NCBI GenBank assembly: GCA_021813435.1 | Contig: JAKAKR010000012.1 | Span: 9,982-73,981 of the forward strand | Direction of reading: 5' to 3' | DNA: 64,000 bases | DNA from: Nanobdellota archaeon | GTDB lineage: Archaea > Nanobdellota > Nanobdellia > Woesearchaeales > UBA9642 | In this document: positions 5,588 through 50,865 of the stretch, one piece after another | How the letters are laid out: the number at the start of each line of letters is the position of its first letter | Position numbering within the stretch: the stretch's first letter is position 1 | Position numbers and translations under genes: made by a program | The notes under the pieces: model-generated | What the model saw: only the letters and a program-made list of their open reading frames with translations | Databases searched by the model: none | What the model was told of the DNA's origin: nothing

Positions 5588-5607
5588 TTAATACCTCATA
5601 TTTCGTA

Positions 5608-7320: not shown

Positions 7321-8390
7321 CTTCTTAAATGTTTAAAATAAAACATACCGATTTTATGAATCAAATTACTCGGTAATAAATAAGCCAGTAATATGATGAA
7401 ATTGTTCTTTACAGAGTATCTTGCTTGAGGAATAGTCTTAAAAACCAATGTTAAATTATCTGTAATATTTTTATTTTTAGCATTAAAATTTGGCGTTTTT
7501 GAAGCAATTCGTAGTAACCGTCCTTTAATTGAAAAAAAATCTTTTTCAAATGCTCGAAGGAGTAATCCTTTTAGATACGGTATCTCGATTTTATTTTTTC
7601 TGCAAAATATCACTAATTTATCGATAAATAATAAATATTGTTTAACTCCCTCAACAGTAGCGTTCATTTTATTACTTATATTTGGGTGGATACGGTAATC
7701 AATAAGTGGTTTATCGATATATGCACAAGGAGCCAAGCAGCAAATTGAAGATACAACCAAACTGTCGTGTCCATAAAATAATTCTGGATCTGAGCCGCCT
7801 ATTTTTTTGTATAATCGTTTATTAAAAATATGGTTTGGAAATGCTGTCGGTAATACCACGGCATATTTGCCTCCGCGCATAGGAATGCTCATCATAGTAA
7901 AATTACCCAACATATCTGTCTTCTCAAAAACAATAACATCGCGCATATTTCTGAAATAATCCTCTTTATGTATTCGTTTTCTTGTTACTTTATGTAAATA
8001 TTTGCCATTTGCATCTATAAAGTTATTTGCAGTTACAACAAATCCAATATCGGGTTTTTTTTGTATTACCTTCCAACAATTAGAAAGATACTCTTTATGC
8101 ATTAAATCGTCATCTGATAAAAATTGAATCCATTCTGTGTTTGATTCGTTAACCAAGCGGCGCATACTTTCGATATATCCTCTGTTTTTTTTATTAATAA
8201 TAACTTTTATGCGTTTGTCGGTATATCTTTTTAATGTATCTATTGTCCCATCAGTACATCCATCGACACATATTAAGATTTCAAACTCTTTGAAATTTTG
8301 CTTTAAAACTGAATCTATAGTGCATTTTAATAATTCGTTTCGATTGAATGTAGGGATACATACACTAATTTTTGGATTTGCATTTATCAT
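7317..8390 (-). CDS. Family 2 (GT-A) glycosyltransferase.
   Basis: KISVCIPTFNR...DG...DDD is the classic GT2 N-terminus with a DxD motif. The start was moved to the ATG at 8390 (MINANPKI) to avoid a 47-nt overlap with the upstream gene. Confidence 0.7.
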   Translation of the reverse strand: MINANPKISVCIPTFNRNELLKCTIDSVLKQNFKEFEILICVDGCTDGTIDTLKRYTDKRIKVIINKKNRGYIESMRRLVNESNTEWIQFLSDDDLMHKEYLSNCWKVIQKKPDIGFVVTANNFIDANGKYLHKVTRKRIHKEDYFRNMRDVIVFEKTDMLGNFTMMSIPMRGGKYAVVLPTAFPNHIFNKRLYKKIGGSDPELFYGHDSLVVSSICCLAPCAYIDKPLIDYRIHPNISNKMNATVEGVKQYLLFIDKLVIFCRKNKIEIPYLKGLLLRAFEKDFFSIKGRLLRIASKTPNFNAKNKNITDNLTLVFKTIPQARYSVKNNFIILLAYLLPSNLIHKIGMFYFKHLRR

Positions 8391-8394
8391 TTTG

Positions 8395-9507
8395 TTACTT
8401 ACCAAATTGTTTTTTAAAAACAGGCTTATATAGATCTTCATAATAATAAGCGTTTAATAAATTATGTACACCTTTTACATAATACTGATAGTTGTTCGCA
8501 ATTGTTAGTATCGCGCGATACAGCTGCTTTTCTGAATAATCAATAACTATCCCCGCATGGTATTTGTTAATTATTTTCGAAAATTCAACGCACGCAGTAG
8601 TAATTACAGGATAACCGTAACTAAGATATTGCTTTATTTTAGTAGGATCTCCGAGATATTTAACTGCATCAGGCATATATGGCGCAACTGCAATGTAGTT
8701 ATAATTCCCTAATAGAACTCTAAGTTGAACTTCATCAACCACAGGCGTATATACGCTAGTATTGTTATGCTGGTAAGTTGCATTGCCACCCACAAATACA
8801 AATTGGTATTTATCTAGATTTTTAGCCACACTATCGATTAATGCGATTCCTTTAGCCTTATCAAACGTCCCGATATATAATACTCTTTTTTCTGTTTTAA
8901 CTAATTTTTTTGTGTTATTATCTATGCCTAAGGACTGAACAAACCCTTTTTTTATGTTCGATCCACGAAAGTAATTTTTCAAACTGCGGGAGATATACCA
9001 TCGATGATCCGCATGCTTTAAGCTACATCCCAGAACTTTGGCAGTGATATTCGATTTTAAACGGGATATAATATTATTTTTACTGATTCGCATGATGTCG
9101 CCCACTATATATATCGTATGTAGTTTAAGTAAATTTCCAAAAAAGATTAAGTAGGGGTTAGAGGAGATTAGAACAATGTTCTTATTGAGGTTGCGTAATC
9201 TGATTGATGATAGATTCACAAAGAATGATAAATAATAAAGAATCACAGAAAATACATCTTTGCTTTTTGAAGTGTATGTCGCTGTGACTTTACTTAGGGA
9301 TCCTTTCTTAAAAACCGTGATGTTGCTATCACCATTATGGACTATATCTGGAAAATATATAGAGTACAAAATAACATCTTCATAATTCTCTACTAAATAC
9401 TTAGGAATCGACCCGAGATTGAAACCTACATCGAAATTAGCGTATATTATTAGACTATTATTTAAAGTGTTATTTAATTTCATCTTTAACAATTTCATTC
9501 CAGTCAT
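8395..9507 (-). CDS. GT-B-fold glycosyltransferase (GT1/GT4-like).
   Basis: A 370 aa ORF. The C-terminal half has a GT-B signature (LYIGTF...G.ALIDS...FVGG...P...GYPVITT). It has the 4-nt overlap architecture of its neighbours. Confidence 0.5.
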   Translation of the reverse strand: MTGMKLLKMKLNNTLNNSLIIYANFDVGFNLGSIPKYLVENYEDVILYSIYFPDIVHNGDSNITVFKKGSLSKVTATYTSKSKDVFSVILYYLSFFVNLSSIRLRNLNKNIVLISSNPYLIFFGNLLKLHTIYIVGDIMRISKNNIISRLKSNITAKVLGCSLKHADHRWYISRSLKNYFRGSNIKKGFVQSLGIDNNTKKLVKTEKRVLYIGTFDKAKGIALIDSVAKNLDKYQFVFVGGNATYQHNNTSVYTPVVDEVQLRVLLGNYNYIAVAPYMPDAVKYLGDPTKIKQYLSYGYPVITTACVEFSKIINKYHAGIVIDYSEKQLYRAILTIANNYQYYVKGVHNLLNAYYYEDLYKPVFKKQFGK

Positions 9508-10624
9508 ATTTTTTTACAAAATTATATGCCTTTTCAGCTAAGCGATGTCTTCTGCCTTCGTTGTTCAGGTACTGTAGTATCTTAGATGCGAAAATGTTTG
9601 TATTTGCAAACGGAATCCATTCAACATTATCTCTCCAAATCGGCACAATTTCCTTAAGATCATATGCCAATACTGGAACTTGAGCAGCCATAGCCTCTCC
9701 AATAACTATCGCCCAGTTTTCTTCATGGCTCGGAAGGACAAATAATTTTGCAGATTTAATTATTCTAAATTTTAAATTGAAATCATATATGGCTCCCAGT
9801 AGTATAATATTTGAATCTAAATTATTATCAGTAATGAATTTATTTATTTTATCAATTACCTCCTTATTTCCATCTCCAATTATGACGAGTGTTGCTCCGT
9901 GTCTTTTTTTGCATACTTCTTTCCAGATACTTAGAAGATCTAATACGCCCTTACCGTAGTTCAAACGCTTAATAAATACTGCATCATAATTCTTCTTTTG
10001 GACGGGAATTAAATTTATCTTAGCATAGTCAACGCCACAATACACTACGCGGATTTTACGTGAGGGAATGTGTTTAGTGCATATCAGTTTATTTTTCGTT
10101 ACTTTGGACACTGCCAGGATTTCGTCTGAAAAGTATTTAATAAGAAGACCGCTGATAACTCTATTAAGCCAATATGAATATCTTACGAACGCAGGAGTAT
10201 TCCCACGCGTATCTAACCACGGATATTCTTCTACCCAATGATATGCTGCGATCCATTTACTTTTTTGGGCTAATTTCACTCTCAAGGCAGGAAGAACATT
10301 ATAAATATGTTCACATGAACTATACACTATATCATATTGACTGTTCATGTAGCGAGATTTTATTATGGTTAATAGCGTAATGTAAAAATTTGAGGAGAAT
10401 GATGAACTTACAGAATAATTTATTGCTATTAATTTCGTGTACGGCACCTTAAGCTTCTTTGTTAATTCTTTGCCATTTTTGTTTGTTAATAAATGTACGT
10501 CATATTCATTCTGTTGGTAAATATGTCGCATGATTTCGAATAGTCTAATATCCCCGCCCGATATTGCGACTTTATTGTTATCTTTTGTTATACCGGTTGT
10601 AATAAATAATATTTTCTTTTTCAT
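9470..10624 (-). CDS. Family 4 glycosyltransferase (GT-B).
   Basis: An EX7E motif is present (SHEENWAIVIGEAMA). The ATGA start/stop overlap with wecB is typical. Confidence 0.7.
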   Translation of the reverse strand: MKKKILFITTGITKDNNKVAISGGDIRLFEIMRHIYQQNEYDVHLLTNKNGKELTKKLKVPYTKLIAINYSVSSSFSSNFYITLLTIIKSRYMNSQYDIVYSSCEHIYNVLPALRVKLAQKSKWIAAYHWVEEYPWLDTRGNTPAFVRYSYWLNRVISGLLIKYFSDEILAVSKVTKNKLICTKHIPSRKIRVVYCGVDYAKINLIPVQKKNYDAVFIKRLNYGKGVLDLLSIWKEVCKKRHGATLVIIGDGNKEVIDKINKFITDNNLDSNIILLGAIYDFNLKFRIIKSAKLFVLPSHEENWAIVIGEAMAAQVPVLAYDLKEIVPIWRDNVEWIPFANTNIFASKILQYLNNEGRRHRLAEKAYNFVKKYDWNEIVKDEIK

Positions 10625-11685
10625 TTTAGCATGTTAATGATTCTTTCGGTAACCTTCTCTCCAAATGGGTTCATCCAGTCACGATCAGAATATATTAACT
10701 TCTCGGATGCTTTTTTTAGATTATCATATTCGTGATTAGAAAGTATTGATGCACCAACCTCAATTGTCTCAGGTCTTTCAGTGTTATCTCTCAAGGTGAT
10801 ACAAGGTGTTTTCAGTATGCATGATTCTTCTTGTATCCCTCCTGAATCTGTATAAACAATTTTGCTTTTAGAGATTAGAATTAGGGTGTCAAGATATTTT
10901 GTTGGTTCAATAACTTTGATAGATGTAGGTATAGTGATATGATATTTCGCAATGATATTGAGTGTTCTCGGATGTATTGGAAATACTATTTCTAACGAAT
11001 ATTCTTGGCTTATCCTATCAATTGACGATAAAAGTTGCGAAAGCTTCGTTGGATCATCAACATTCGAGGGTCTGTGCAATGTAAGTAAAGCAAAGTTATT
11101 TGATAAATTCAACGTATTTAATATTTCACTATTCTTATATGCAAGTTCTAGGTTACAATTGACTGCATCGGATATAGTATTCCCTGAAACTATTACCTTA
11201 TTCTCTGCGATTCCTTCCTTCAATAATATTTGTGCTTGTATACGCGTGGGGCAAAATAAATAGTCGGATATGTGGTCAACGAGTATGCGATTCTTTTCTT
11301 CCGGCATAGTATTATCATAGCTGCGCAGACCTGCTTCTATATGGACTAGTTTTATGTTCAATTTCGAAGCAGTCAAAGCGCCCGCTAAAGTGCTGTTGGT
11401 ATCACCTTGTACAATTACGTAAGTCGGCTGCTCTTTGATCAATATCGGTTCGATTTTTTGCATCATTGTTCCAGTTTGCTGGGCGTGGCTTGCTGATCCA
11501 ATATTTAAATTATATTTCGGATTAGGTAGCATTAATTCCCGAAAAAAAACAGAGTCCATATTTTCATCATAGTGCTGATTAGTATGGATAATAAAAAAAT
11601 TTATTTTTTTATTGAGGAGTTCTCTAATAATCGGACTAAATTTTATTATTTCTGGTCTAGTCCCTAAAACAATACAAATCATCAT
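10621..11685 (-). CDS. wecB: UDP-N-acetylglucosamine 2-epimerase (non-hydrolysing).
   Basis: Hallmark motifs GTRPEIIK, HTNQHYD and HIEAGLRS are present. Length is 354 aa. Confidence 0.85.
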   Translation of the reverse strand: MMICIVLGTRPEIIKFSPIIRELLNKKINFFIIHTNQHYDENMDSVFFRELMLPNPKYNLNIGSASHAQQTGTMMQKIEPILIKEQPTYVIVQGDTNSTLAGALTASKLNIKLVHIEAGLRSYDNTMPEEKNRILVDHISDYLFCPTRIQAQILLKEGIAENKVIVSGNTISDAVNCNLELAYKNSEILNTLNLSNNFALLTLHRPSNVDDPTKLSQLLSSIDRISQEYSLEIVFPIHPRTLNIIAKYHITIPTSIKVIEPTKYLDTLILISKSKIVYTDSGGIQEESCILKTPCITLRDNTERPETIEVGASILSNHEYDNLKKASEKLIYSDRDWMNPFGEKVTERIINMLK

Positions 11686-13463
11686 TTTAACCCCAATTTA
11701 CCTATACAATATGTTATTGATTCTGTCGCATAAACACTCACAGTTAATACACCTGCAATAGGATGCACAACCCAAGCAAAATTTCTATCCTTAAAAATCA
11801 TATAAACAGACTCTATGAATGGTCCCACAAATGTTGCCAAATAAATAATCGATAATACAAATTTAATGTTACTAGTATCTCTCATCCAGATACTTCCGAT
11901 ATTTCTGTCATAACGCCATAACACTTTACTCACTATCTTTTTTCTTTTTTTTACAAAATCAGTTAAAGAGTTGGCATAATAGTGATAGATGTATGCATTA
12001 TTAGGTATTGCGTAAGTACTATATCCTTTTGTACGCAAATAATTTACGAAATTGGCTTCTTCAAAAATCGAGGTATCTTTCCAGTATTTACTCACCAGGG
12101 TTTTGTTCCATAAAAATCCATTTGCTCCCGTAATATACGGTTTGTCGGGCATTTGAAAAATTAAAGAATAATATTTCTTATGCACCACTGTTCTAGGTGG
12201 AGTGCACAGCATTCGAGCAAGAGGGTCAGAAATTCTTAGAAGTGTACAATATTTATTAATTAACGTCATATTTGTATTTATTGTCATCTTTGATTCAACG
12301 CCAATAATATTTGTTTCGTTATGCATGGCGTATATCATGTTCAGTAACCAATATTCATTTGTGATTATATTATCGGAGTCTAGAAGTATAAAATATTCAG
12401 TTGTACATTTTTTTATACCTACCGCTTTCCCATATTCTGCTATACGATGGGGATTGTTCTCAATTTTAACATCATATTTCTTTGCGATATTCAAGGTATC
12501 ATCTTTCGAACCGCCATCGATTATTATTACATCGAATTTGTTTTTAGGATACTTTTGCATAAAAATTCCGTTCAAACAATCTACAAAGTATTTATCAGAG
12601 TTATAAGTCGTAATTATAAAAGTTACTGGAGGGTAATGTGACAACATCGGCTGACTTTCAATGTAACTTTTTAATCCCTTTTTAAAAGAAATGAACTCAT
12701 TCAATTTTAGGACAAAAAGCCCGAATAAAAGTAATGGATGCAATAATCCATTTATTAACACCTTAAAAGGACTGAATCTCTTAAAAATATTGCGTTGATT
12801 ATTTGAAATAACACGATTCTTTTTTTGATACAAATAAAAATATTTTGCGTAATCTTCCTTCTTTTTTTTGATATTTGAAATATTTAGCTCACCTTCATCA
12901 TGCATTAATAATAGTTTTGTACGATATATCTTGTTGGTATATTTTCGAATTCTATTGTTTAAATCCCAATCTTCAAAAGCATTTAAGTCTTCATCATACC
13001 CCCCGATTTTTAAAAAGACTTTTTTATCGAAAAATCTTGCTGCTTCTATTAAATCATTCCCAACGTAAAAGCTTCTCTCAAACGCCTTAACTTTAGCCCA
13101 ATACCCGATACCGATGGATTTCTCGGGAAGGATTATTGCTTTGCAATTCGTCTGCTCAGCAAGCTCAACGCATTCCTTCACAGAATCTTTATGAAAATAA
13201 ATATCTGAGTCATGAATAAGCAAATACCTTCCTTTAGATTTTTTTGCACCAAAATTTCGCTGTGCACTTCGTTCAGGACCTTTCGTATAGAATTTATCTG
13301 CATATTTTTTTGCTATTTCTGGTGTCTTGTCAGTACTGTTATTATCAACCACAATTAATTCAATATGTCTATAACTTTGATTCTTAATTGTTCTCAAACA
13401 TCTTTCCAAAGTTCTTCCGGAGTTCTTTGTTGTTATGATAACCGAAACTAATGGCTTATCCAT
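11682..13463 (-). CDS. Bifunctional glycosyltransferase with two tandem GT2 (GT-A) domains and a C-terminal membrane anchor.
   Basis: The first domain reads VSVIITTKNSG...DNNSTD...DSD. The second, around residue 280, reads VTFIITTYNSD...DGGSKDDT...DSDN. The tail is hydrophobic. Confidence 0.7.
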   Translation of the reverse strand: MDKPLVSVIITTKNSGRTLERCLRTIKNQSYRHIELIVVDNNSTDKTPEIAKKYADKFYTKGPERSAQRNFGAKKSKGRYLLIHDSDIYFHKDSVKECVELAEQTNCKAIILPEKSIGIGYWAKVKAFERSFYVGNDLIEAARFFDKKVFLKIGGYDEDLNAFEDWDLNNRIRKYTNKIYRTKLLLMHDEGELNISNIKKKKEDYAKYFYLYQKKNRVISNNQRNIFKRFSPFKVLINGLLHPLLLFGLFVLKLNEFISFKKGLKSYIESQPMLSHYPPVTFIITTYNSDKYFVDCLNGIFMQKYPKNKFDVIIIDGGSKDDTLNIAKKYDVKIENNPHRIAEYGKAVGIKKCTTEYFILLDSDNIITNEYWLLNMIYAMHNETNIIGVESKMTINTNMTLINKYCTLLRISDPLARMLCTPPRTVVHKKYYSLIFQMPDKPYITGANGFLWNKTLVSKYWKDTSIFEEANFVNYLRTKGYSTYAIPNNAYIYHYYANSLTDFVKKRKKIVSKVLWRYDRNIGSIWMRDTSNIKFVLSIIYLATFVGPFIESVYMIFKDRNFAWVVHPIAGVLTVSVYATESITYCIGKLGLK

Positions 13464-14491
13464 TTCTCAAGCCTCCCGATGTTTTTGTTCCAGTCTGCGT
13501 GTGTTCTTGCAAATGTTATTGATTCGGTAGCATGATATTGTGGATTTTCAATCATCTTGTCCATTGCAGTGCGCATTTCTTTAATATTCCTGCACATAAT
13601 TCCTGTCTTATTGGCGTCGCGTAGTCCGGGGACGTCATAGGTTATAGCTATTGTCCCATTCGCATTGGCTTCAGTCACGATGAGTCCCCACCCTTCACGT
13701 ACTGAGGTCACAAGTATCGCAAGACTTTTTGCCATAATCTTATCCCGCTCCATTAAACCAATCTGTCCAGTAAATACGACCTTTTGTTCCAGATGAAGTT
13801 TTCTTACGAGGCGCATAAGATCTTTTTTATAATCGCCATCACCAATAACATACAATTTCGCATCAACATCAACCATTGCCCGTATTGCATCCTGCGCCCG
13901 TTTGCTCTTCTTGAGCCTGCCACAAAACACGAATGCATGCTCCTTATCAGAAACATTCGACATTGGCGTAAAATCAATCTGGTTTTCAAGAACCAATATC
14001 TCTTTTGGATTCATCCAGGCATAAGAGACTAAATCATTCTTAGTGGAGTTTGAGACAACAAATGCGCGTGTACATGCATATAATTTTAGATAACACCATT
14101 CACAAACAATGCCGATTGTTGCAACGGCAATATTTTTTTCATAAAACCATACATCAAGCGCTAATTGGTGAAAAAACGCAACTCTCTTCTTGCGTGGAAC
14201 ATAGAGTGGGGTAAAAAATGGGACAGTATTCACCTGATCAATTACTAAATCATAATTACCTCGCTTATAAAATTTGTAGGCTTCAATATATACTGAGAGC
14301 GGGGTCCCAGAGCGGGCAATCGTATATCCATGATAATTCTCAGATTTTCTTGAGCCCTGAAACCTGCTTGAAAACAATGTAACAGAATGGCCTTCTCGAG
14401 CAAGTCCCGCAAGATAATTATCAGTCACGATCTCAGCACCGCCCTTAAGCGGATTCTTCATATCCCTCCATGCGAGCATGAGGATGTTCAT
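13448..14491 (-). CDS. Family 4 glycosyltransferase (GT-B).
   Basis: MNILMLAWRD...GGAE is a GT4 N-terminus. The C-terminal VREGWGLIVTEANANG carries the E..E motif. Confidence 0.7.
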   Translation of the reverse strand: MNILMLAWRDMKNPLKGGAEIVTDNYLAGLAREGHSVTLFSSRFQGSRKSENYHGYTIARSGTPLSVYIEAYKFYKRGNYDLVIDQVNTVPFFTPLYVPRKKRVAFFHQLALDVWFYEKNIAVATIGIVCEWCYLKLYACTRAFVVSNSTKNDLVSYAWMNPKEILVLENQIDFTPMSNVSDKEHAFVFCGRLKKSKRAQDAIRAMVDVDAKLYVIGDGDYKKDLMRLVRKLHLEQKVVFTGQIGLMERDKIMAKSLAILVTSVREGWGLIVTEANANGTIAITYDVPGLRDANKTGIMCRNIKEMRTAMDKMIENPQYHATESITFARTHADWNKNIGRLEKWISH

Positions 14492-41956: not shown

Positions 41957-42484
41957 TCAGGCAATCTGTTTTTGCATGAAGAAATAGACTTCATTGGATT
42001 TTGCAAGATGCCGCAGGAAAATCTTTCGCCCGGATGCGAGCGTCAGCTGCACTGTTCCTGTCGCAAAATACCGGTCGAACACATTGCTCGTATACCATAC
42101 GTTCCTGATACTCGTGTAGGGTATCTTCTCGACTCCTGCAGCGCGGATTTCAAGATACGCTTCGTAGAAGATATAAGTGATGCGCTGGTACTGCAGGTAG
42201 GCAAAGAGCGTTTCGAACGTGATCAGAAGGAGTATTCCGACGCCATAGAACATATTGAGCCATAGCGGGATCTGAATCTGCAAAAGATAATAGTTTATCG
42301 CAATCCCTGTATAGAGAAGCAGGGCAAGAAATATCAATGTGATCATCTTAATGATCAAGAATCGTTCAGGGACAGGATGCGTCTTTAACTTCGGGATATC
42401 AGGAAGATAATTCATGCTCACACTCTTTGTTAACATAAGTGAATAAGAGGTATTTAAAGATTGCTGTTGGAGGGTATTGTTCAA
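41957..42484 (-). CDS. Membrane protein with a bacterial-PH (DUF304/YdbS-like) domain.
   Basis: Two N-terminal TM helices are followed by a ~90 aa beta-rich domain. Confidence 0.35.
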   Translation of the reverse strand: MNNTLQQQSLNTSYSLMLTKSVSMNYLPDIPKLKTHPVPERFLIIKMITLIFLALLLYTGIAINYYLLQIQIPLWLNMFYGVGILLLITFETLFAYLQYQRITYIFYEAYLEIRAAGVEKIPYTSIRNVWYTSNVFDRYFATGTVQLTLASGRKIFLRHLAKSNEVYFFMQKQIA

Positions 42485-42537
42485 CCTGTAGATGTTAAGT
42501 GTCGGCTGTTAAGAATTCGGCTGTTTTCTTTATAAAC

Positions 42538-43029
42538 TTAGAATTTCCAGCCTTCTGCTCTGAATAATTCGACAACATCTATGGCTTCGATGGACTTCTT
42601 ATTGCAAACAAAAGGTATTCTTACCCTGTTTTCTCTGAGTTTTTCTTCAGTTACAACAATTCGTTTAATGCTGAACAATGTTTGTTGTGTACTTGATGTT
42701 AATTCGATAGCTAGAGCAATAACCCAAGGATCAGCATCGAACTTTCTTTCAGTATCAATTAATGCAGGATAATCCCTTAGTATTTCTTGGACTAGCTCAA
42801 TCTGACGTTGTGTTGGCTCTTTGAACATCTTCTTCTGGTTTTTAACCCATTTGCTAAGCATATCATCATTTTGCTTGATTTCGTTTAATACTTCTCTTGG
42901 TGCAATTAAGCGATTATTATCTGCTAAGAACTTGAGCTTCTCCCAGATACTTGGAAATACATCGATTGGGTTATTTCTGTTCAACTTCACTAAGGAAGAA
43001 GTATCGATGATGTAAACGTTATTAGTCAT
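42538..43029 (-). CDS. DUF4411-like PIN-related protein, the predicted partner/effector of the ImmA/IrrE metallopeptidase.
   Basis: A 163 aa ORF beginning YIIDTSSL. It has an ATGA-type overlap with the upstream ImmA/IrrE gene. Confidence 0.45.
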   Translation of the reverse strand: MTNNVYIIDTSSLVKLNRNNPIDVFPSIWEKLKFLADNNRLIAPREVLNEIKQNDDMLSKWVKNQKKMFKEPTQRQIELVQEILRDYPALIDTERKFDADPWVIALAIELTSSTQQTLFSIKRIVVTEEKLRENRVRIPFVCNKKSIEAIDVVELFRAEGWKF

Positions 43030-44189
43030 TTTTTCGCCTTTGAGAGTACCTTGTCAAAACTCTTTGATTTTATTGAAAGATAATTTAATGCATCGGTGTA
43101 TGTGATATGGTCTCTGTCATAGTTGTTGGCGACAAGAGAAACAAATTTATTTCCAACTTCAGAAAGACATCTTACTTCGGATGGAATTCCTCCGCCAGTT
43201 CCTTCTTCACCTTCTTTTTTTGTTGGTTTGATATCTTCTTTTTTGAATCTTGATAGGATTGCATCGTAATCTGTTCTTCCAATATAATTTAATTTGAGCA
43301 TATTCAAAAGAAGCATAGCTTTACTGACTTTGTATCTATTAGACAAGTATTTTAGAGTCTCTTTTTGAGTAAGCTTTGCTTTGTTCGTATCAAATGCTGA
43401 TTTTGCGATATCTTTTGGAAGCAAGAATGCTGATGCAAATTCATTGCACCATTTTTCAACATTATCTTTAAAAGTGTGTGTTGCATCAGGAAGATCTATG
43501 ACTGATTCTCCTAATAAAATATGACCAAATTCGTGCATTAGAGAGAATATTCTTGCTTCGATATTGTCTTTTGTGTTTACAACGATAACTGTTGGTGTTT
43601 CATCTACAAACACAAATCCTCGTGCATCTTCAACAGGCATTGAAAATTGGAATAAATAGATGTTTTGATCCTCAAGAATATCTCTTAAGTAATTGAAAAG
43701 TTCGTACGGTGTTTTGAATTTTCTTTGTTTTTCTTCAGTTAAATTAAATTTCTCTCTAAATTTAATGGCAATGTGTTCTGCATTATCAGAAATCTTGACT
43801 TTTTCTATTTTTGATTTTGTTTCATAATCTACATTTCGAGATAATTCTTTGCTTAGTTCTTGTAATCTTCTTGCATGTCGCATTACAAAAACAGTTTTTT
43901 TGTCAAATTTGTTAGTCTTATCTGGAAGCATCCTGTAATCTTTTGGCTTTGGTTTTTCTGTCAACGGTTTTGATAATAAGAATGACGCTACAGGTCTTTT
44001 GAAAATGATTGCTAATTCTTCCAATTGCCTAAAAGATGGTTTCTTCTCACCAGATTCCATCTTTTCAATATTTTGAGTGCTAGTGTTTAGACGCTTCGCT
44101 ATTTCTTCTCTTGTCCATCCTGAACTCTCAATAAGCCATTTCAGGACAGATGGTTCAACATTCACAGCGATTGGTTTCGTTCTAGCCAT
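43026..44189 (-). CDS. XRE-family HTH fused to an ImmA/IrrE (COG2856) zinc metallopeptidase.
   Basis: N-terminal HTH (TREEIAKRLNTSTQNIEKMESGEKKPSFRQLEELA) and a C-terminal HEXXH motif (LMHEFGHILLG). Confidence 0.75.
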   Translation of the reverse strand: MARTKPIAVNVEPSVLKWLIESSGWTREEIAKRLNTSTQNIEKMESGEKKPSFRQLEELAIIFKRPVASFLLSKPLTEKPKPKDYRMLPDKTNKFDKKTVFVMRHARRLQELSKELSRNVDYETKSKIEKVKISDNAEHIAIKFREKFNLTEEKQRKFKTPYELFNYLRDILEDQNIYLFQFSMPVEDARGFVFVDETPTVIVVNTKDNIEARIFSLMHEFGHILLGESVIDLPDATHTFKDNVEKWCNEFASAFLLPKDIAKSAFDTNKAKLTQKETLKYLSNRYKVSKAMLLLNMLKLNYIGRTDYDAILSRFKKEDIKPTKKEGEEGTGGGIPSEVRCLSEVGNKFVSLVANNYDRDHITYTDALNYLSIKSKSFDKVLSKAKK

Positions 44190-44222
44190 TTTAGTCAGTT
44201 AGTGTTTCTTTCTTGATTAAGT

Positions 44223-44681
44223 TTATTCTTCTTTTTTCTTCTTAAATCTTTCTTTGATTTTTCTGATTAATCCTTTTGATAATTCTACATTGAAAAAAGT
44301 CAAGTCTATAAGTGTAAATAATCCGATGCTAAATGCAAGGGTCAAAGCTATTGTTATTTTTATAGTGAAACTGATGTATGTATTGATGTATTTATTGTTT
44401 GTTTCATATATTGTAATTACATTCTGATTAACTTTGGAGATTGCATCCGTAAGTAAGGTTAAATCTGATTTAGTAACTACTGTTTTATTAAGTTCTTCAT
44501 AGTTTTGTTGACAAGTTTTCAATTGCTCCGAAAGATTTTTGGCTTGTTCTATTGCAGTGTTATCAACTACCACATTTGTCGGAGGGTTAGCTACAGAATT
44601 AAGTTGAGAAATAAGTACTGGCGTTATGATTGCCAAGAATACTAATGCAATAATCCCTGAAACAATCTTTTCGACGCTCAT
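44223..44681 (-). CDS. Small membrane protein with N- and C-terminal TM helices flanking a coiled-coil segment. It is translationally coupled to the RM gene.
   Basis: A 152 aa ORF whose ATG overlaps the stop of the upstream RM ORF in an ATGA-type junction. Confidence 0.45.
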   Translation of the reverse strand: MSVEKIVSGIIALVFLAIITPVLISQLNSVANPPTNVVVDNTAIEQAKNLSEQLKTCQQNYEELNKTVVTKSDLTLLTDAISKVNQNVITIYETNNKYINTYISFTIKITIALTLAFSIGLFTLIDLTFFNVELSKGLIRKIKERFKKKKEE

Positions 44682-47600
44682 TTTAACGAATCCTCGATAA
44701 GCTTCTGTTCTTTTGCGTTAACTCCATATAGTTCATAAATTAAAGAGTTAATTTGCGGTTCAATAGCATCTATTTGCCTGGATATGATTTCTTGATCAGA
44801 TGTCAATTTCGAAGCATTGAATTTCTTTTTTAATTCGATTATATTTGTTACAGATGCAACAATTTTATCGTGAGATTCTTTTTCTTTTTTATTATTGAAA
44901 TCGATTTGTTTTATTGGTATTTCCCCAGAAAACTGCTTGTTTGTAGCGTAGAATCCACCACTCAAAAAGATGCTTATCTTGCTGATAAAAAATGTTGCAA
45001 GAGTACTATTTAAAATGGATAATAAATACTTTTTATCCTCTTTGATTTCTTTTTTCAAGGTAATTCCATTCACACCTACATTTTTAATGAAGATTGAACC
45101 TTCTTCATCAATCGCCGAGCGAGCTCTTTTTACAACATGGGGAATTAATATTTTGGATAATCTTTGTTTATCTATTGCTTGATTTCTGCTGTATTGATAC
45201 CATCCAGAATTATTGAATTTTCCTTTTTCTCTATCCTTAAGTTCTTTTTTAAAGATGCTTAAGTAATCCCAACACATTTTGTATTTTTGGATTTCTTTTT
45301 CTTCCAAAAGTTTTCCATCTTTATATGGAAAAATAATATAAGCATCACTTTTCCCAATATAATAATTATCTATATCGCTATCACCTATGATGTTAAAAGT
45401 TACCTCTGATTCTATTTCTACATTTTTATCCATTTTTTTAGAGTAAAAAATTCTAGTTTTTCCCTTATCTTCTATTAGCTTAAGGATGTATACATCATCC
45501 ATCCCCGTAATTAGACCTTGAAAATTCAATTCGAAGCAATCTTGAAATTTCTTATTTTTTCTTATCTTTTCAAAGAGTTTTTCTTCTTCTTCTGTCATGA
45601 AATACCATTTATCTTCATTGAGGAAGTGCGGTTCGATTTCGTCAATGACAAAATTATCTTCATTTTCTTTTGCTTCATTCAAGAAATATGTGATTTTTTC
45701 ATCCTTATTTTTATACAATCCTCGAATCTCTTGATATGTTAATGAAGACTGTTGCTTTTTATTCTGCAAAAACAGTAAACAAGTGTACGTGTCTGCTTTG
45801 CTGAAGACAAAATAATGCCTGAAATTTGTTAAGTGATATATGTTAAAGTTTTTGATATGCTTTCTTAGATTTGAACCATATTCGCTATTAAAAAATCTAT
45901 TGGGACAAATAAAGCCGAGAACACCATTTTTATTTAATAATGAAAGTGATCTCTCGATAAATGGAACATATATATCTACATTTCCATCTTGAGCGGTTTG
46001 ATATTTTTTTTGATAAAATGCAGTTTCTTCAGGATAAAATTCAATTAATTTCTGAATTTGAATATATGGGGGATTTCCGATAATTGCATCAAATCCTCCC
46101 TCTTTCATCACGTTACCAAATCCTTTAATTGAATCAGCCCAATTGAAAATATTGACTCTTCTTGTTGTATCCATATCCGATAGAGTTAACTGGGTCTCTT
46201 GATAAAATTCAGAACCAATTAATGAATTTCCGCATTTAATATTATCGTCTAAGTCAGGAAGTACTCTTTCTTGAATTAACTTCATTTGTTGATCTACGCT
46301 TTCTTTGGTTTCATTTTCCAAAACTTTTAGCAATAAACTCAATTTTGTAACTTCTACCGCTTGCGAGTCAATATCCACGCCATAAATATTATTTAATAGG
46401 ATCTTCTTTTTTCTCTCAGAAGTTAAAGCCCATTGATTTTCTTTTATCTGAAAAATATCTTTTTTGAATTTTTTTGGATCATTTTTTATGTAATATTTCA
46501 AATGATATTCTAAGAGATAAGAATATGCGCCTAATAAGAAACTTCCAGAGCCACAAGCAGGGTCTAAAATTCTTATGCTTTCAATTTCTTTGGGCGTTTT
46601 ACCTTTGAAAACCTTGCCGACTGTGTTTTTAACCACATACTTTACAATATAAGAAGGAGTGTAGAAAATTCCACCTGCTTTTTTTACCTCTGGTTTTTCT
46701 TCAACCTTAGCTTGGTGTGATGTCGTTAGTTTTATCACTTTTCCCAAGAATTGCTCGTATACATTACCTAAAACCTCAACACCGATAACGGTAAACTCAT
46801 AGGGGCAGATTGGATAATATAATTCCAGAATAATGCTTTTTAAGACAGAATCGTCAATCTGAATTTTAGTGGTAATTTTATCTGGCTCGAGATTGAAGAT
46901 TCCACTATTGTATTTTTCGTCAGCATATTGAAAATAACTTAAAATCTCTTTGTAAACATTTGAACTTGATGAAATTTCTTTTAATCGCTCATATCGTTCA
47001 ATACTATGATCTTCACATATTCTTAAAAATAAGATTCTATCTATTGTTATTTGAACTGCAAAATTCAACTCGTAAATCGATAAATCTTTATTTCTCGAGG
47101 CAATATTCTTCGCTAAAATTTCTCTCCATTTTTCAATTTCTTTCAAAAATTCTTCATCAACTTCAGTAGTCCCCTTTTTCCCTTTTGATGATTCTATAAA
47201 TCTATCAAAACTTCCTCTTAAAACATATTCTTTTGAAAATGATGTAAATATTTCTTCAAACTTTTCTTCATATTGTTCGAAAGTGAAATACCATATTCTT
47301 CCAGCACTGGCTTTATCTTTTTCAGAAGGTTTACTTGTACAATCATAAACAGCGAACTCTTCAAAATCAGTAAGAATTGATATTGGTAATTTAGCGTTCC
47401 ACGCGTAACGTTTTAATTGAAATGCAGGTTCTGGTGCATCTTTGATATTTACTGCTGGCTTTTTTGCTTCAACAAAAAACTTTCTCACTCCACCTATTCT
47501 AAATCCGTAGTCGGGTGCTTTTGTTTTACCGCTGATTTTAAGAGAATCTTCATTTACAACTTCTTTATATTGTTCAGCATGACCTTGCTCATTATCAACA

Positions 47601-47761
47601 TCCCATCCAAGAATTTTAAAAAATCTATCAACATATTCTTTCCTAACTTGAGCTTCATTATATGTGTCTTTTTTATATTGAGAATAGCTCTCTTTAAATT
47701 GTGCAACTAACTTTTTAAGTTCAATTTTTGCCTGTTCTTTAGTTAATTGTGTAAGTACCAT
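44678..47761 (-). CDS. Type IIG/IIL restriction-modification enzyme (MmeI-like, with fused PD-(D/E)xK nuclease, gamma-class N6-adenine methyltransferase and target-recognition domain).
   Basis: N-terminal PD...EAK nuclease motif (PDYGFRIGGVRKFFVEAKKP), MTase motif I DPACGSGSFLLGA and motif IV IIGNPPY. Length is 1027 aa. Confidence 0.8.
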   Translation of the reverse strand: MVLTQLTKEQAKIELKKLVAQFKESYSQYKKDTYNEAQVRKEYVDRFFKILGWDVDNEQGHAEQYKEVVNEDSLKISGKTKAPDYGFRIGGVRKFFVEAKKPAVNIKDAPEPAFQLKRYAWNAKLPISILTDFEEFAVYDCTSKPSEKDKASAGRIWYFTFEQYEEKFEEIFTSFSKEYVLRGSFDRFIESSKGKKGTTEVDEEFLKEIEKWREILAKNIASRNKDLSIYELNFAVQITIDRILFLRICEDHSIERYERLKEISSSSNVYKEILSYFQYADEKYNSGIFNLEPDKITTKIQIDDSVLKSIILELYYPICPYEFTVIGVEVLGNVYEQFLGKVIKLTTSHQAKVEEKPEVKKAGGIFYTPSYIVKYVVKNTVGKVFKGKTPKEIESIRILDPACGSGSFLLGAYSYLLEYHLKYYIKNDPKKFKKDIFQIKENQWALTSERKKKILLNNIYGVDIDSQAVEVTKLSLLLKVLENETKESVDQQMKLIQERVLPDLDDNIKCGNSLIGSEFYQETQLTLSDMDTTRRVNIFNWADSIKGFGNVMKEGGFDAIIGNPPYIQIQKLIEFYPEETAFYQKKYQTAQDGNVDIYVPFIERSLSLLNKNGVLGFICPNRFFNSEYGSNLRKHIKNFNIYHLTNFRHYFVFSKADTYTCLLFLQNKKQQSSLTYQEIRGLYKNKDEKITYFLNEAKENEDNFVIDEIEPHFLNEDKWYFMTEEEEKLFEKIRKNKKFQDCFELNFQGLITGMDDVYILKLIEDKGKTRIFYSKKMDKNVEIESEVTFNIIGDSDIDNYYIGKSDAYIIFPYKDGKLLEEKEIQKYKMCWDYLSIFKKELKDREKGKFNNSGWYQYSRNQAIDKQRLSKILIPHVVKRARSAIDEEGSIFIKNVGVNGITLKKEIKEDKKYLLSILNSTLATFFISKISIFLSGGFYATNKQFSGEIPIKQIDFNNKKEKESHDKIVASVTNIIELKKKFNASKLTSDQEIISRQIDAIEPQINSLIYELYGVNAKEQKLIEDSLK

Positions 47762-47769
47762 TTTATGAC

Positions 47770-47913
47770 CTAAGCTTTTTTTATTTCCTCTAATTCTTTT
47801 TTCATAAGCGTCTCAACTTTTCTAGAAAGAATCATATCGTTTTCTTCACAGTACTTCTTGTACTTCTCGTAAACTTTTTCGTCAAGACTTAATGCAAAAG
47901 TTTTCCTACCCAT
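47770..47913 (-). CDS. Ribbon-helix-helix (CopG/Arc-like) small protein, 47 aa, not in the ORF track. Possibly a controller or antitoxin of the downstream RM operon.
   Basis: Manual translation gives MGRKTFALSLDEKVYEKYKKYCEENDMILSRKVETLMKKELEEIKKA. This is a beta-strand then two helices, typical of RHH. It ends 9 nt before the RM start. Confidence 0.5.
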   Translation of the reverse strand: MGRKTFALSLDEKVYEKYKKYCEENDMILSRKVETLMKKELEEIKKA

Positions 47914-48281
47914 ATAAACACATATAATCCCATATACTTATAAATTTATCGCAAAAAAAGTTTTAAGACACATAAAATCATATAAAGAAAAAAACTGATT
48001 TCTATTTTTTATGAGAGAGTAGACTCTTAATGTCCTTAAAAAGAAATCAGAGCTCTTTCATCCAGACTGGACTCGAGATGTTACTACTATTGACTCCAGT
48101 GGCTCAAAAAACAGGGAAGAGAGATACAACATAAAATTAGGAAAATAAAACAATGGGCTTTCCCCTGTTTTCAACATCACTGAACTGAGAAGTAGTAAAT
48201 TGACGTTTCATTTATAGAAGAGAGAATGAGAGAGTAAGTAGAGTATGGTAGATGTAAGAATATTATAGATTGGTCACTGTA

Positions 48282-48983
48282 ATGGATTTGTACATGAAGG
48301 GCGTTAGCTATCGATCAATTGCAGACCACTTAAAGCAAATCTACGGACTTGAAGTAAGTCATATTACGGTTTTGAACTGGGTTAATACTTATCTGACAAA
48401 GATTACCGAATATGTCAAGTCTATGCAACCGCAAGTCGGAGACTACTGGCTTGCAGATGAACAATTCATCAAAGTCAAAGGCAATCAACAGTATGTCTGG
48501 AATGTACTTGACAACAAAACAAGATTTCTTTTAGCAAGTAATGCAAGTAAAACAAGAAACTATGAAGATGCGAGAAGAACCTTCAAACGAGCAAAGAAAG
48601 TTGCTGGCAAGAAAGCTAAGACAGTGGTCACAGACGGCTCATTCAATTATTCAAAAGCCGTAAGAAAAGAATTTGCAACCTATCAAAATCCTAAACCTCA
48701 CAAGCGTTATGTTTCATTAAGACAGAAGACAGGAAATAACAATAAGATTGAACGATTCCACGAAACTTTCAGGCAGAGAGATAAAGTAATGCGCGGATTC
48801 AAAGGAAATCAAAAGAAATACGCAGAGAACTTTCAGACATACTATAATTTTGTAAGAAAACATTCAAAGATTGGTATGACTCCTGCTCAAAAAGCGAAGA
48901 TAGATCAGAAAGCAGACTGGAAAGAACTTCTAACCAAAGCAATGCAAAGTCCAGTGCCTGAAAATCACACAAGACCAGTGTAA
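48282..48983 (+). mobile_element. IS6-family (IS26-like) DDE transposase gene.
   Basis: Architecture and blocks parallel IS26 Tnp: N-terminal HTH (YRSIADHLKQIYGLEVSHITVLNWV), WLADEQFIKVKG (D), VVTDGSFNYSKA (D) and NNKIERFHETFRQR (E). Candidate imperfect IRs are ttggtcactgtaatgg (48270-48285) and attgacagtggacaaa (49061-49076). Confidence 0.75.
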
Positions 48984-49146: not shown

Positions 49147-49640
49147 TTGGTCTCACTGTCGGTTTTGATTTTTTGCCTACAGGTTTGCCTACTGGTTTCA
49201 ATTCAGGCGGTTAGTTTCTCGGTTAGCTTTCAAAATGTGATTTGCCACTACAGGGTTCACTACTGGCTTCAATTTTTAGAATCATCTTTATGTGTCCATT
49301 CTCATTTTCAGAGACTGCGTCTGAGACTGGGTTTCAATATGTCCCCTTCCCTTCTTAGCCTGTTAGAAAGCCGGTTTACACCAAAAACACAACAAAAATG
49401 GTTTATATACCCCCGCCCCTCCGACTACTGGCTTGACTACAGGTTCCAAAAAAATCACTGTTAGATTCTCAGTTAGGACCATATGAACAAAGAAAGAGTT
49501 CTCACTTACCTTTCAGTTAAACCTGACTGTTAGACACCAAGAAAAAGTCAATTTCCTCAGTTAGACCCCCTGCCTGTCAGAACATCCGCCACTTAACGGA
49601 TAGGATTGACATCCACAGGGTGAACAATACGCTGTTGGAG
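49147..49640. repeat. Non-coding tract of degenerate short repeats (motifs ACTGG[CT]TTCAAT, CAGTTAG and ACTGTTAG recurring every ~70-95 bp).
   Basis: Examples are cctactggtttcaattcagg, cactactggcttcaattttt, gactgggtttcaatatg and gactactggcttgactacagg. There are also ctcagttaggacc, tttcagttaaacctgactgttag and cctcagttagacc. No long ORF is present. Confidence 0.5.
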
Positions 49641-49705
49641 GGTAGGATACCAAGAAGGATCATTGTTTAGAAAGATTAATAAAAACATCAAGCCATAGAA
49701 CGGTG

Positions 49706-50692
49706 ATGCAGAACCAAAAGCTACTTGAACAGAAATTTTTTGAAAGAATCAATCACAAGGGCAAATTAGAAGAGATATCCCGAAATGTCTGCCGGGATTA
49801 TAATTTAGGCGATTTTGTTTCCCACAAGCTTATCCCCATTGGTTATGAGGATTTCAATTATGCGCTGGAAACAGACAAGGGCAAGTATTTCGTCAAGGTG
49901 TTTGCAAAATCGCGGACAATCGGTGAATGCAAAAGAATAACCCGGATTATCAAAGAGACGTCATCTGCAAATGTTTCGACCCCAAAACTACATCAATCGA
50001 ATCAGGGGATATGCTATTCAATAAAAAATCCGCATACACAACTCCAGCTCTGCGTCCTTGAATATGTCGACGGCAAGACGATACACGACCTGCATAAACC
50101 ATTGACAAAAAAAGAGATACAATTCATTGCAAGACAGGCAGCGCGCATCAATACGCTTCACATAAAACCATCGTTCATCTATGATGAATGGGCAATACCT
50201 CATTTTTTGAGAGAATACCGCAAAAAGGGCAAGTATCTCAATGCGAAGGACCGCGCGCTCATTGATCAACTTATCACAGCGTATAAGAAATTAAAGTTGG
50301 ATACGCTCCCGCATGCATTTGTCCACGGCGATATATTAACGACTAATATTATCAAGGATACGCATAGAAGGCTATGGATAGTGGATTTTTCTGTAGCAAA
50401 CTATTATCCGAGAATTCAGGAACTTGCGGTTCTTGCATGCAATCCACTCTTCGATGAAAAGAACAAGGACAACAGCGAATACCAATTACAATTGGCGTTA
50501 AAAGAATACCAGAAGATCATTCCATTAACCCGAAGGGAGCAAGATGCACTGCCGACATACATCAAATTGGCGCATGCCATGCATCTATTATCAGCAAATT
50601 ACCAAAAAGTAGTCATGCATAATGTTTCTGAAGAGAATATATATTTCTTGAATCAGGGCAGAAACGGATTGAAACAGATGGGTAAATCATAG
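49706..50692 (+). CDS. Aminoglycoside phosphotransferase (APH)/choline-kinase-like family kinase.
   Basis: Catalytic loop HGDILTTNII (HGDxxxxN) and the metal-binding IVDFSVA (DFx equivalent). Length is 329 aa. Confidence 0.65.
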   Translation: MQNQKLLEQKFFERINHKGKLEEISRNVCRDYNLGDFVSHKLIPIGYEDFNYALETDKGKYFVKVFAKSRTIGECKRITRIIKETSSANVSTPKLHQSNQGICYSIKNPHTQLQLCVLEYVDGKTIHDLHKPLTKKEIQFIARQAARINTLHIKPSFIYDEWAIPHFLREYRKKGKYLNAKDRALIDQLITAYKKLKLDTLPHAFVHGDILTTNIIKDTHRRLWIVDFSVANYYPRIQELAVLACNPLFDEKNKDNSEYQLQLALKEYQKIIPLTRREQDALPTYIKLAHAMHLLSANYQKVVMHNVSEENIYFLNQGRNGLKQMGKS

Positions 50693-50700
50693 ATCATAAA

Positions 50701-50773
50701 TGGGCCCGACCGGATTCGAACCGGCGACCTTCTCCACGTCAAGGAGACGTCATAGCCACTAGACTACGAGCCC
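50701..50773 (-). tRNA. tRNA-Val (anticodon GAC).
   Basis: The reverse complement folds as a cloverleaf: acceptor GGGCTCG/CGGGCCC, anticodon stem TCTCC/GGAGA with loop TTGACGT, T-arm GCCGG-TTCGAAT-CCGGT, discriminator A. A TATA-like TTTATTTATAAA lies ~28 nt upstream (50796-50807). Confidence 0.8.
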
Positions 50774-50865
50774 ATTGCCATGCAAGATTCAAAATTTATT
50801 TATAAATGTAATGATTTATCGCGCGTCATCTTTAGCGCCCTATTTTTGCAGATGGCACGGTGTTA

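Follow-up and report, generated by a model that had tools for sequence, protein, structure and literature searches.

Restriction-modification (RM) systems are, to our knowledge, regarded as purely cytoplasmic, and the embedded accessory proteins that we know of (PrrC, TgvAB) are soluble enzymes. PrrC is hardly ever found other than embedded in a Type I RM system (Payne et al., bioRxiv 10.1101/2024.01.29.577857). In one such locus, EcoprrI, this accessory gene comes right after hsdS, is co-expressed with the RM enzyme, and is thought to provide a second layer of defence (PMC12707154). More broadly, embedding in an RM operon is an established predictor of a role in defence (Payne et al., 10.1101/2024.01.29.577857; TgvAB, PMC11411939; PrrC, PMC12707154). 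Here, we describe a gene for a small protein with two transmembrane (TM) segments. It lies in a 64,000-nucleotide (nt) stretch of contig JAKAKR010000012.1 from a Nanobdellota archaeon (Woesearchaeales); we call this stretch the window, and we call the gene and its product the TM gene and the TM protein. The TM gene is embedded in the manner of prrC: it is on the same strand as the RM genes, within their operon, and by the specificity gene.

We are highly confident of the descriptive part of our account, which is that the TM gene is real, belongs to a family, is embedded in RM operons, is coupled to the RM gene, and is better conserved than the RM enzymes. The new part is the protein family, which is unnamed; that accessory genes are embedded in RM operons was already known.

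The TM gene, its family and its operons

The TM gene and its operon partner are arranged as follows:

44223..44681, minus strand: gene for the two-TM protein (an open reading frame of 152 amino acids), described here as the founding member of an RM-embedded family
44678..44681, minus strand: ATGA overlap, seen in the sequence, between the stop codon of the RM gene (TGA, 44680-44678) and the start codon of the TM gene (ATG, 44681-44679)
44691..44695, minus strand: GAGGA motif that resembles a Shine-Dalgarno sequence, 9 nt before the ATG and still within the RM gene, at its 3' end
44678..47761, minus strand: Type IIG RM enzyme, the operon partner (1027 amino acids; from Pfam and PADLOC)

An earlier note on this DNA described an open reading frame of 152 amino acids that starts inside the stop codon of the RM gene, lies just upstream of an ImmA/IrrE gene, and encodes a TM segment, a coiled coil, another TM segment and a basic C-terminal tail, with no recognisable family. 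All of this held up. The overlap is 4 nt, on the minus strand, and the ImmA/IrrE gene begins 33 nt downstream of the TM gene. Hydropathy and the helices predicted by AlphaFold2 give the same layout, with a helical hairpin as the loop. And the TM protein does not match any family at the curated cutoffs in Pfam, NCBIfam, PADLOC-DB v2 (including its PDC candidates), or PHROGs v4.

When we compared the TM gene to its orthologue in a Woesearchaeota metagenome-assembled genome (MAG), the ratio of nonsynonymous to synonymous rates (dN/dS) was 0.09; for the three flanking genes, it was 0.05–0.06. A search of 5.8 billion proteins identified 17 clusters of close homologues (51–95% identity). When we searched 1.84 billion representatives exhaustively with a profile, about 20 more distant relatives emerged, all of them full-length (E = 1e-8 to 1e-3). 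A second profile search found further relatives, for about 35 distant clusters and about 50 homologue clusters in all. Because of the low dN/dS and the 17 close and about 35 distant clusters, the TM gene is not a chance open reading frame: judging from these sequences, it is a real gene under purifying selection.

By the same comparisons, the TM protein founds an unnamed superfamily of proteins of 146–192 amino acids with a fixed architecture: a short N-terminus, TM1, an acidic α-helical hairpin (75–110 amino acids), TM2, and a basic amphipathic tail. We aligned 53 members of the superfamily, and this alignment is the basis of the counts of columns, charges, sequons and TM segments given below. 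All 53 have two TM segments, the loop between them has 73–109 amino acids, and the tail is mostly basic.

The best Pfam match of the TM protein was FlgK_D1, at 18.2 bits versus a cutoff of 28.6; AI-2E_transport reached 15.6 bits versus a cutoff of 34.3. We scanned the window protein and 25 members of the family, and we rejected the matches to FlgK_D1, AI-2E_transport/PerM, ASRP, SH3_and_anchor, SLATT_5 and tape-measure proteins as sub-threshold noise from coiled coils and TM segments. The JGI names of some homologues ("PerM permease" or "gas vesicle protein") are artefacts of such noise. A sequence-profile search of the PDB with the TM protein returned only the coiled coils of GCN4, keratin and BicD, and Foldseek comparisons of both AlphaFold2 models to the PDB and BFVD gave nothing below E = 0.25. 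No relatives were found in 2.9 million IMG/VR viral contigs, which we scanned with the alignment of the close family. Local hidden Markov models detected no second copy of the TM gene, and no related open reading frame, in the window or in any of the homologues' loci. A literature search found no description of the family.

The RM enzyme encoded in the same operon as the TM protein is of Type IIG. Its Pfam domains are HSDR_N, N6_Mtase/Eco57I/MmeI_Mtase, and TaqI_C, and it matches REase_MTase_IIG from PADLOC (E = 1e-246). In other words, it combines an HSDR_N nuclease, a gamma-class N6-adenine methyltransferase, and a TaqI_C target recognition domain (TRD). Through the ATGA overlap, translation of the TM gene is coupled to translation of the RM gene. 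Purine-rich motifs (GGAGG/GGTGG type) precede most of the homologues as well.

We also noticed that the C-termini of the Type IIG enzymes, just before the start codon of the TM gene, are nearly alike. In the window (44681-44770, minus strand), L001, L016, L017 and L026, they read …Y.LYG[IV]..[KE]E.K[IL]IE[DE]SLK and then the stop codon, despite just ~30% identity between the enzymes overall. (We refer to homologues' loci by L or P numbers; L001 is the Woesearchaeota MAG mentioned above.) Part of this likeness is the usual terminal helix of TaqI_C, and the identical last residues may be constrained by the TM gene, whose ribosome-binding site and start codon overlap this stretch.

We examined the genomic context of every homologue whose locus could be retrieved. 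This gave about 18 loci, all from metagenomes, of which 16 contain an intact TM gene with readable flanks. All 16 are inside RM clusters, with five next to Type IIG enzymes and 11 in Type I operons:

Type IIG partner: window (with L021-23), L001, L026, L016 (with L029, L030), L017
Type I hsd operons, close family: L005/L006, L032, L012-14, L007-9, L010-11, the P0015 locus, L031
Type I hsd operons, distant branch: L018, L019, L020, L025

For the distant branch, the contexts come only from contigs that were found to encode its members. Two loci are outside this count: in L028, the TM gene is a 3' remnant that was truncated by an insertion sequence (IS), and in L024, the TM gene is at the end of the contig and the truncated gene upstream is unassignable.

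The TM gene is directly 3' of the TRD-bearing gene (hsdS or the Type IIG gene) in 11 loci, and in three others, one small open reading frame lies between them. At its upstream end, the TM gene meets the preceding gene at -8 to +1 nt in 11 of 13 loci, usually with overlapping stop and start codons where it directly follows the TRD-bearing gene; in Type I operons, the junction at its downstream end is usually similarly close. The other genes embedded in these hsd operons vary from locus to locus and include Shedu SduA-like, Mrr_cat-TPR, MNT/HEPN, AbiEi/AbiEii, PIN, NYN, SWIM, and SLFN/AlbA_2-Fic-like proteins. The TM gene is the constant element: in the loci that we compared, none of these genes was a conserved second partner, beyond the RM subunits themselves. 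Furthermore, the TM protein is better conserved than the enzymes. It is 50–55% identical between operons whose Type IIG enzymes are ~30% identical and whose HsdR and HsdM are 25–30% identical. If the window is compared to L016 or L017 by blastn, then the TM gene is the only stretch that is still detectable.

These contexts show that the TM gene is an accessory gene embedded in both Type IIG and Type I RM operons. They give the link between the TM protein and restriction strong support, as firm as comparative genomics allows at about 18 loci. The tie to restriction that the earlier note had suspected is thus seen in every informative locus (16/16). The note had also asked if homologues always sit beside MmeI-like RM genes. 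They do occur with MmeI/Eco57I-like Type IIG enzymes (five loci), but the "always" has to be dropped, as the other 11 loci are Type I hsd operons.

Neighbouring genes and the mobility of the cassette

The other features of the operon in the window are:

43026..44189, minus strand: gene with helix-turn-helix and Peptidase_M78 domains (ImmA/IrrE; RmrA-like antitoxin), from Pfam and PADLOC (RmrA, E = 4e-23)
42538..43029, minus strand: DUF4411 gene (PIN-like), the presumed toxin of the ImmA pair (Pfam DUF4411, E = 1.4e-29), with a 4-nt overlap with the ImmA gene
47770..47913, minus strand: 47-amino-acid open reading frame, Arc/RHH-like (ribbon-helix-helix), 8 nt upstream of the RM gene (PHROG Arc-like repressor, E = 1.9e-7)
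42539..47766, minus strand: four-gene cassette of 5.2 kb (Type IIG, TM, ImmA, DUF4411), with borders from blastn and a GC content of ~30%, versus ~45% for the host

Given its matches to RmrA, the ImmA-DUF4411 pair is a toxin-antitoxin pair that resembles RosmerTA. A functional tie between the TM gene and the ImmA/IrrE gene was not supported by the comparison: of the 16 informative loci, just the window and L001 have the pair, while the other 14, including all of the Type I loci, lack it. Because of these absences, the TM gene is not a component of RosmerTA. In L026 and L028, whose TM proteins are 90–93% identical to that of the window, a zinc-finger gene and a Bro-N gene take the place of the ImmA-DUF4411 pair.

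The 47-amino-acid open reading frame was also called in L021-L023. L001, with a cassette that is otherwise identical, lacks it. A TATA-like box (AATTTATAA) lies about 30 nt upstream of it. This reading frame and the box are probably the regulator and promoter of the operon, which would then run from the RM gene through the TM and ImmA genes to DUF4411.

The host is a Woesearchaeota archaeon, with a LonB that is 79–86% identical to proteins from Woesearchaeota MAGs. The cassette is shared with L001 (JACPTG010000002.1) at 84% nucleotide identity. The shared block has sharp borders and different flanks in the other genome, so the 5.2-kb block moves as a cassette. The ImmA-DUF4411 pair is also 84% identical at the protein level (with a high dS of about 2). 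Adjoining the low-GC island is a gene for an IS240-family transposase (48270-48983). The island and the transposase gene are bracketed by a 28-nt inverted repeat (42471-42498 and 49606-49633; 86% complementary), which may mark the ends of a composite mobile element. Further out, the island is flanked by a gene for an APH-family kinase (49703-50692, plus strand) and a tRNA-Val gene (50700-50774, minus strand). The operon at the P0015 locus, with Type I and TM genes, also adjoins an APH gene, and Woesearchaeota may share a hotspot here at which RM islands integrate.

Several other loci bear traces of mobility. In L028 (390-1526), from another metagenome, a gene for a DDE transposase has inserted into a TM gene whose product is 93% identical to the window protein; only the last 85 codons are left, and the locus has lost its RM gene. 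The 85-amino-acid form occurs on several contigs (cluster members P0061 and P0062) and is a decayed copy of the cassette. In L032, a VirB4/TraG-type conjugation ATPase of 959 amino acids (4859-7738, minus strand) is beside the Type I and TM cluster, so at least one copy may ride on a conjugative element.

A second low-GC island in the window (30–34% GC, about 4000-13500) contains a run of genes on the same strand, one of which encodes a double GT2 glycosyltransferase (11682-13463). This island is probably a cluster for surface glycans that was acquired by horizontal transfer.

Some of the genes next to the TM gene in the Type I operons also encode small membrane proteins. In L010 (7363-8004), the protein x213 has the same layout as the TM protein (TM, coiled coil, TM, and a tail with KKRFKRRKRK) with no detectable homology to it. 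In L005 (8477-9034), there are two such proteins, x70 with a pair of TM segments and x113 with one TM segment at its C-terminus; neither is detectably related to the TM protein. Genes for membrane proteins may thus recur in operons of this kind. The hsd operons of L005, L010, L012, L018, L019 and L031 also contain several large proteins that belong to no family, such as x723 of L005. Type I operons of the kind found in Woesearchaeota are a rich and mostly unannotated source of candidates for defence genes.

Topology and possible roles of the TM protein

Kyte-Doolittle hydropathy places TM segments at about residues 6–28 and 103–129. AlphaFold2, run with the 53 sequences, predicts helices at residues 3–31, 41–66, 71–130 and 133–151 (mean pLDDT, the predicted local distance difference test, of 79.7; pTM, the predicted template modelling score, of 0.38). 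The parts of the protein are:

44598..44666, minus strand: TM1, residues 6–28 (hydropathy; AlphaFold2 helix 3–31), predicted to run from the cytoplasmic side outward
44376..44558, minus strand: loop with the α-helical hairpin, residues 42–102 (AlphaFold2 helices 41–66 and 71–102+), predicted to be extracytoplasmic; net acidic; conservation of 0.82 and 0.71 in alignment A1
44463..44501, minus strand: motif at the hairpin tip, Y61-x2-L64-NKT-VV-T70-K71-x-D73, from column counts, with an N-x-S/T sequon
44292..44375, minus strand: TM2, residues 103–130, with a polar stripe (T106, T110, T114, S118) and D126 near the cytoplasmic end
44226..44291, minus strand: basic amphipathic cytoplasmic tail, residues 131–152 (AlphaFold2 helix 133–151), with an IKxRF motif and nine K/R in the last 27 residues

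Lysines and arginines are concentrated in the tail and, where there is one, in the N-terminal leader, while the 15 residues after TM1 have none. The tail of the window protein (ELSKGLIRKIKERFKKKKEE) is strongly basic. In the loop, acidic residues outnumber basic ones in 50/53 members, and the reverse is never the case. Because of this distribution of charge, we predict that both termini are in the cytoplasm and that the hairpin is outside the cell.

Conservation is highest in helix A of the hairpin (0.82), is intermediate in TM2 (0.73), and is lowest in TM1 and the tail (both 0.58). L64, T70 and D73 are invariant, K71 is present in 52/53 members and Y61 in 47/53, and the consensus of the tip is L..[IV]TK.D. 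In the AlphaFold2 model, the invariant residues map to the turn of the hairpin, which is the tip farthest from the membrane. Nearly all members (50/53) have an N-x-S/T sequon at the tip, versus 25% expected from shuffled sequences, and the sequon is kept through a shift of register (from N65-x-T67 to N68-x-T70). The frequency of the sequon and its retention support an extracytoplasmic, N-glycosylated tip, so the tip probably carries an N-glycan and points away from the membrane. In TM2, 51/53 members have an acidic residue near the cytoplasmic end (column 123 or 126), along with a polar T, S or N in mid-helix. These residues suggest that TM2 takes part in helix-helix assembly or forms a polar conduit.

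Sixteen of the 53 members, not including the window protein, begin with a [KR][GA][QE] leader that resembles the class III signal peptide of archaeal prepilins. The leaderless members, among them the window protein, start with M-[SA]-x-E, at what would be the mature end. A prepilin peptidase may process the leaders.

Our preferred reading, which we propose tentatively, is that the TM protein forms an oligomeric module at the level of the envelope and works together with the RM enzyme; we consider this a reasonable possibility, somewhat short of an even bet. The protein would oligomerise in the membrane via the polar and acidic face of TM2 and would act at the envelope in concert with the cytoplasmic restriction enzyme. 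Because the tip is so strongly conserved, its partner would be a conserved component of the envelope rather than a fast-evolving viral protein. From there, the TM protein would sense foreign DNA as it enters, or act as a gate for it. On the inside, the sole possible contact with DNA or with the RM complex would be the short basic tail. The operon would thus join a membrane layer and a restriction layer of defence. A bolder version is that, in DPANN archaea, RM systems include a membrane subunit of their own that is exposed at the cell surface and whose glycosylated tip reads or gates virus docking or DNA entry, with TM2 and the tail relaying this to the Type I or Type IIG enzyme. We consider this version doubtful.

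Several points weigh against our proposal. We found no homologue of known function for the TM protein in Pfam, NCBIfam, PADLOC, PHROGs, PDB profiles or Foldseek, and our reading of its activity comes from sequences and models. Given the pTM of 0.38, the packing of the hairpin and any oligomer are not established. The hsd operons are crowded with unrelated embedded genes, so embedding by itself does not prove a partnership. The cytoplasmic part of the protein is only about 5 + 22 residues, which leaves little surface for an RM complex, and localising an enzyme in an ultra-small cell would probably bring little kinetic benefit. The position of the TM gene is not absolutely fixed: in L031, the order of genes is M-x298-TM-x479-S-x473-R. 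Finally, the sample is about 18 loci, from metagenomes and a narrow lineage. The crowded operons and the tiny cytoplasmic surface count against every model with a partnership, including our own.

We also considered that the TM protein might be a guard effector, analogous to PrrC. It would be a latent pore or ion channel, with either the RM complex or its own basic tail holding it shut. If a virus disabled restriction (for instance, with an acidic, DNA-mimicking anti-restriction protein that binds the tail), then the pore would open, the membrane potential would collapse, and the infection would be aborted. This fits with the location of the TM gene immediately after hsdS, which is the position of prrC. 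The tail is basic and amphipathic, and the stripe of hydroxyl and Asn residues in TM2, with an acidic residue in 51/53 members, is compatible with a pore, as such residues are often found in pore-lining helices. Furthermore, small proteins with little besides TM segments that are encoded in defence operons (CBASS, Pycsar, retron, RexB) are usually membrane-disrupting effectors. On the other hand, the TM protein has no cytoplasmic sensor or ligand-binding domain, and its best-conserved part is the outward tip of the hairpin, which a pore triggered from the cytoplasm would not need; neither feature is like known abortive-infection pore effectors. The TM protein is also found with enzymes of both Type I and Type IIG, between which there are shared domains only and no common surface, and it has no similarity above noise to any known pore effector, holin or SLATT model. 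We consider a guard effector to be rather unlikely. The earlier note had suggested that the protein might be a membrane-disrupting component of an abortive-infection system; weighing it by analogy to known effectors, we do not specifically favour this role.

Another explanation, which we think is unlikely, is that the TM protein is an autonomous passenger: a self-sufficient membrane protein that uses RM operons as a vehicle. It could be a factor for superinfection exclusion or entry exclusion, or an envelope protein with no role in defence. Small two-TM exclusion proteins do exist, such as Imm of phage T4, and the same operons hold many other autonomous embedded genes. The horizontal mobility of the cassette (the 30% GC island, the adjoining IS, and the same 5.2 kb in another genome) would suit a passenger, as would the neighbours of the TM gene in L032 (the VirB4/TraG-type ATPase) and in L026 and L028 (the Bro-N gene). 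But the TM gene is constant where the other embedded genes vary, and it stays by the TRD-bearing gene across two types of RM systems and across enzymes that are under 30% identical. The absence of the TM gene from sites outside RM clusters (0/16 informative loci) and of relatives from the IMG/VR viral contigs also counts against a passenger.

A third explanation is that the TM protein is a membrane tether. By binding DNA or the RM complex, its basic tail would keep restriction activity on the inside of the membrane, at the point of entry of foreign DNA, and the hairpin would only stabilise an oligomer or anchor it to the S-layer. The tight junctions on both sides, with hsdS and hsdM, suggest production in a fixed ratio, and the tail has a conserved basic motif of the IKxRF type. 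EcoKI of E. coli is reportedly associated with the cytoplasmic membrane. However, the tail is among the least conserved regions (0.58) and is not net basic in one distant branch, the contact surface would be ~22 residues, and in many hsd operons, other genes stand between the TM gene and those for the RM subunits. Ultra-small cells presumably have little to gain from localisation, too. Overall, a tether seems quite improbable.

Last, the protein might be pilin-like, with the leader as a class III signal peptide and the processed protein joining a DNA-uptake structure or another structure like the type IV pilus; the leader of 16 members and the M-[SA]-x-E start of the leaderless ones hint at this, but the window protein and 37/53 members in all have no leader, a second TM segment and a cytoplasmic tail (53/53) are not features of pilins, no Class_IIIsignal or pilin model from Pfam matched, and there are no pilus genes near the loci that we examined, so we rejected the type IV pilin as very unlikely.

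DPANN is a superphylum of ultra-small archaea that includes the Woesearchaeota; hardly any of its members have been cultured, and CRISPR is largely missing from them. In the operons described here, two types of RM systems are accompanied by a conserved membrane protein with an outward, invariant tip, which is better conserved than their enzymes. If this association is functional, then restriction can be coupled to the cell envelope, and the TM protein would be a first way into the biology of antiviral defence or DNA uptake in these archaea. Even if it is an autonomous passenger, "guilt by embedding" makes it a new candidate for defence at the level of the envelope. T70, K71, D73, the acidic residue of TM2, and the tail are clear targets for mutation.

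Comparison with known systems

PrrC is one of the closest known parallels, as the TM gene is in the same slot of the hsd operon, after hsdS. However, PrrC is a soluble ATPase-nuclease that cuts tRNA-Lys, while the TM protein has two TM segments, no enzymatic domain, and no similarity to PrrC in sequence or fold. Also, the TM gene is archaeal and is found with Type IIG enzymes as well. We rejected membership in the PrrC family: neither its ABC-ATPase-like N-terminal domain nor its anticodon-nuclease C-terminal domain was found in the TM protein.

The same logic of "guilt by embedding" has been applied to defence genes within Type I RM, BREX and Hma systems (TgvAB, BrxU and the PDC candidates): a non-RM gene is nested in an RM operon. 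The embedded systems known so far consist of soluble nucleases or ATPases and typically act autonomously. In contrast, the TM family consists of membrane proteins and is constant among embedded genes that vary.

Imm of phage T4 and the class II holins are small two-TM proteins with both termini in the cytoplasm, and the holins have a charged C-terminal tail. But exclusion proteins and class II holins have short loops between their TM segments and are encoded by phages, with the holins next to an endolysin, while the TM protein has a long, conserved helical hairpin and is cellular and embedded with RM genes. So although the topology and the charged tail fit a class II holin, the long conserved loop, the lack of endolysin or phage context, and the lack of viral contigs rule this out. 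We also rejected a SLATT or other 2TM pore effector: SLATT_5 matched only 2 of 25 members, at E = 0.003 and far below its cutoff, and no cyclase or sensor genes are nearby.

The weak top neighbours from Foldseek were membrane-fusion proteins (MexA/HlyD) and Get1/WRB, which has a TM-hairpin-TM architecture. These matches are not significant (E = 0.6–3), and we view them as an analogy of shape only. Like the TM protein, they have a membrane-anchored, antiparallel helical hairpin, and in their case either its conserved tip or the hairpin itself docks with a partner; the hairpin of Get1 is cytosolic.

Kiwa (KwaA and KwaB) couples a membrane-embedded sensor to a DNA-targeting effector. Zorya (ZorAB with a nuclease; PMC11890865) also encodes a membrane component together with a DNA-degrading activity, and TM2 of our protein has an acidic residue, as do ZorB and MotB. 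But the TM protein is far smaller than the components of Zorya or Kiwa, is not homologous to them, and lacks a MotA/ZorA-like partner, a peptidoglycan-binding domain, or a long cytoplasmic tail. Despite the acidic residue in TM2 (51/53), we rejected a stator of the MotB/ExbD/ZorB type, with no partner gene in the loci examined and no match to ZorB in PADLOC. If the TM protein is nevertheless a surface-exposed subunit that relays signals to the Type I or Type IIG enzyme, as in the bolder version of our proposal, then restriction in these archaea would be coupled to the membrane as in Zorya or Kiwa, but it would be built on classical RM enzymes.

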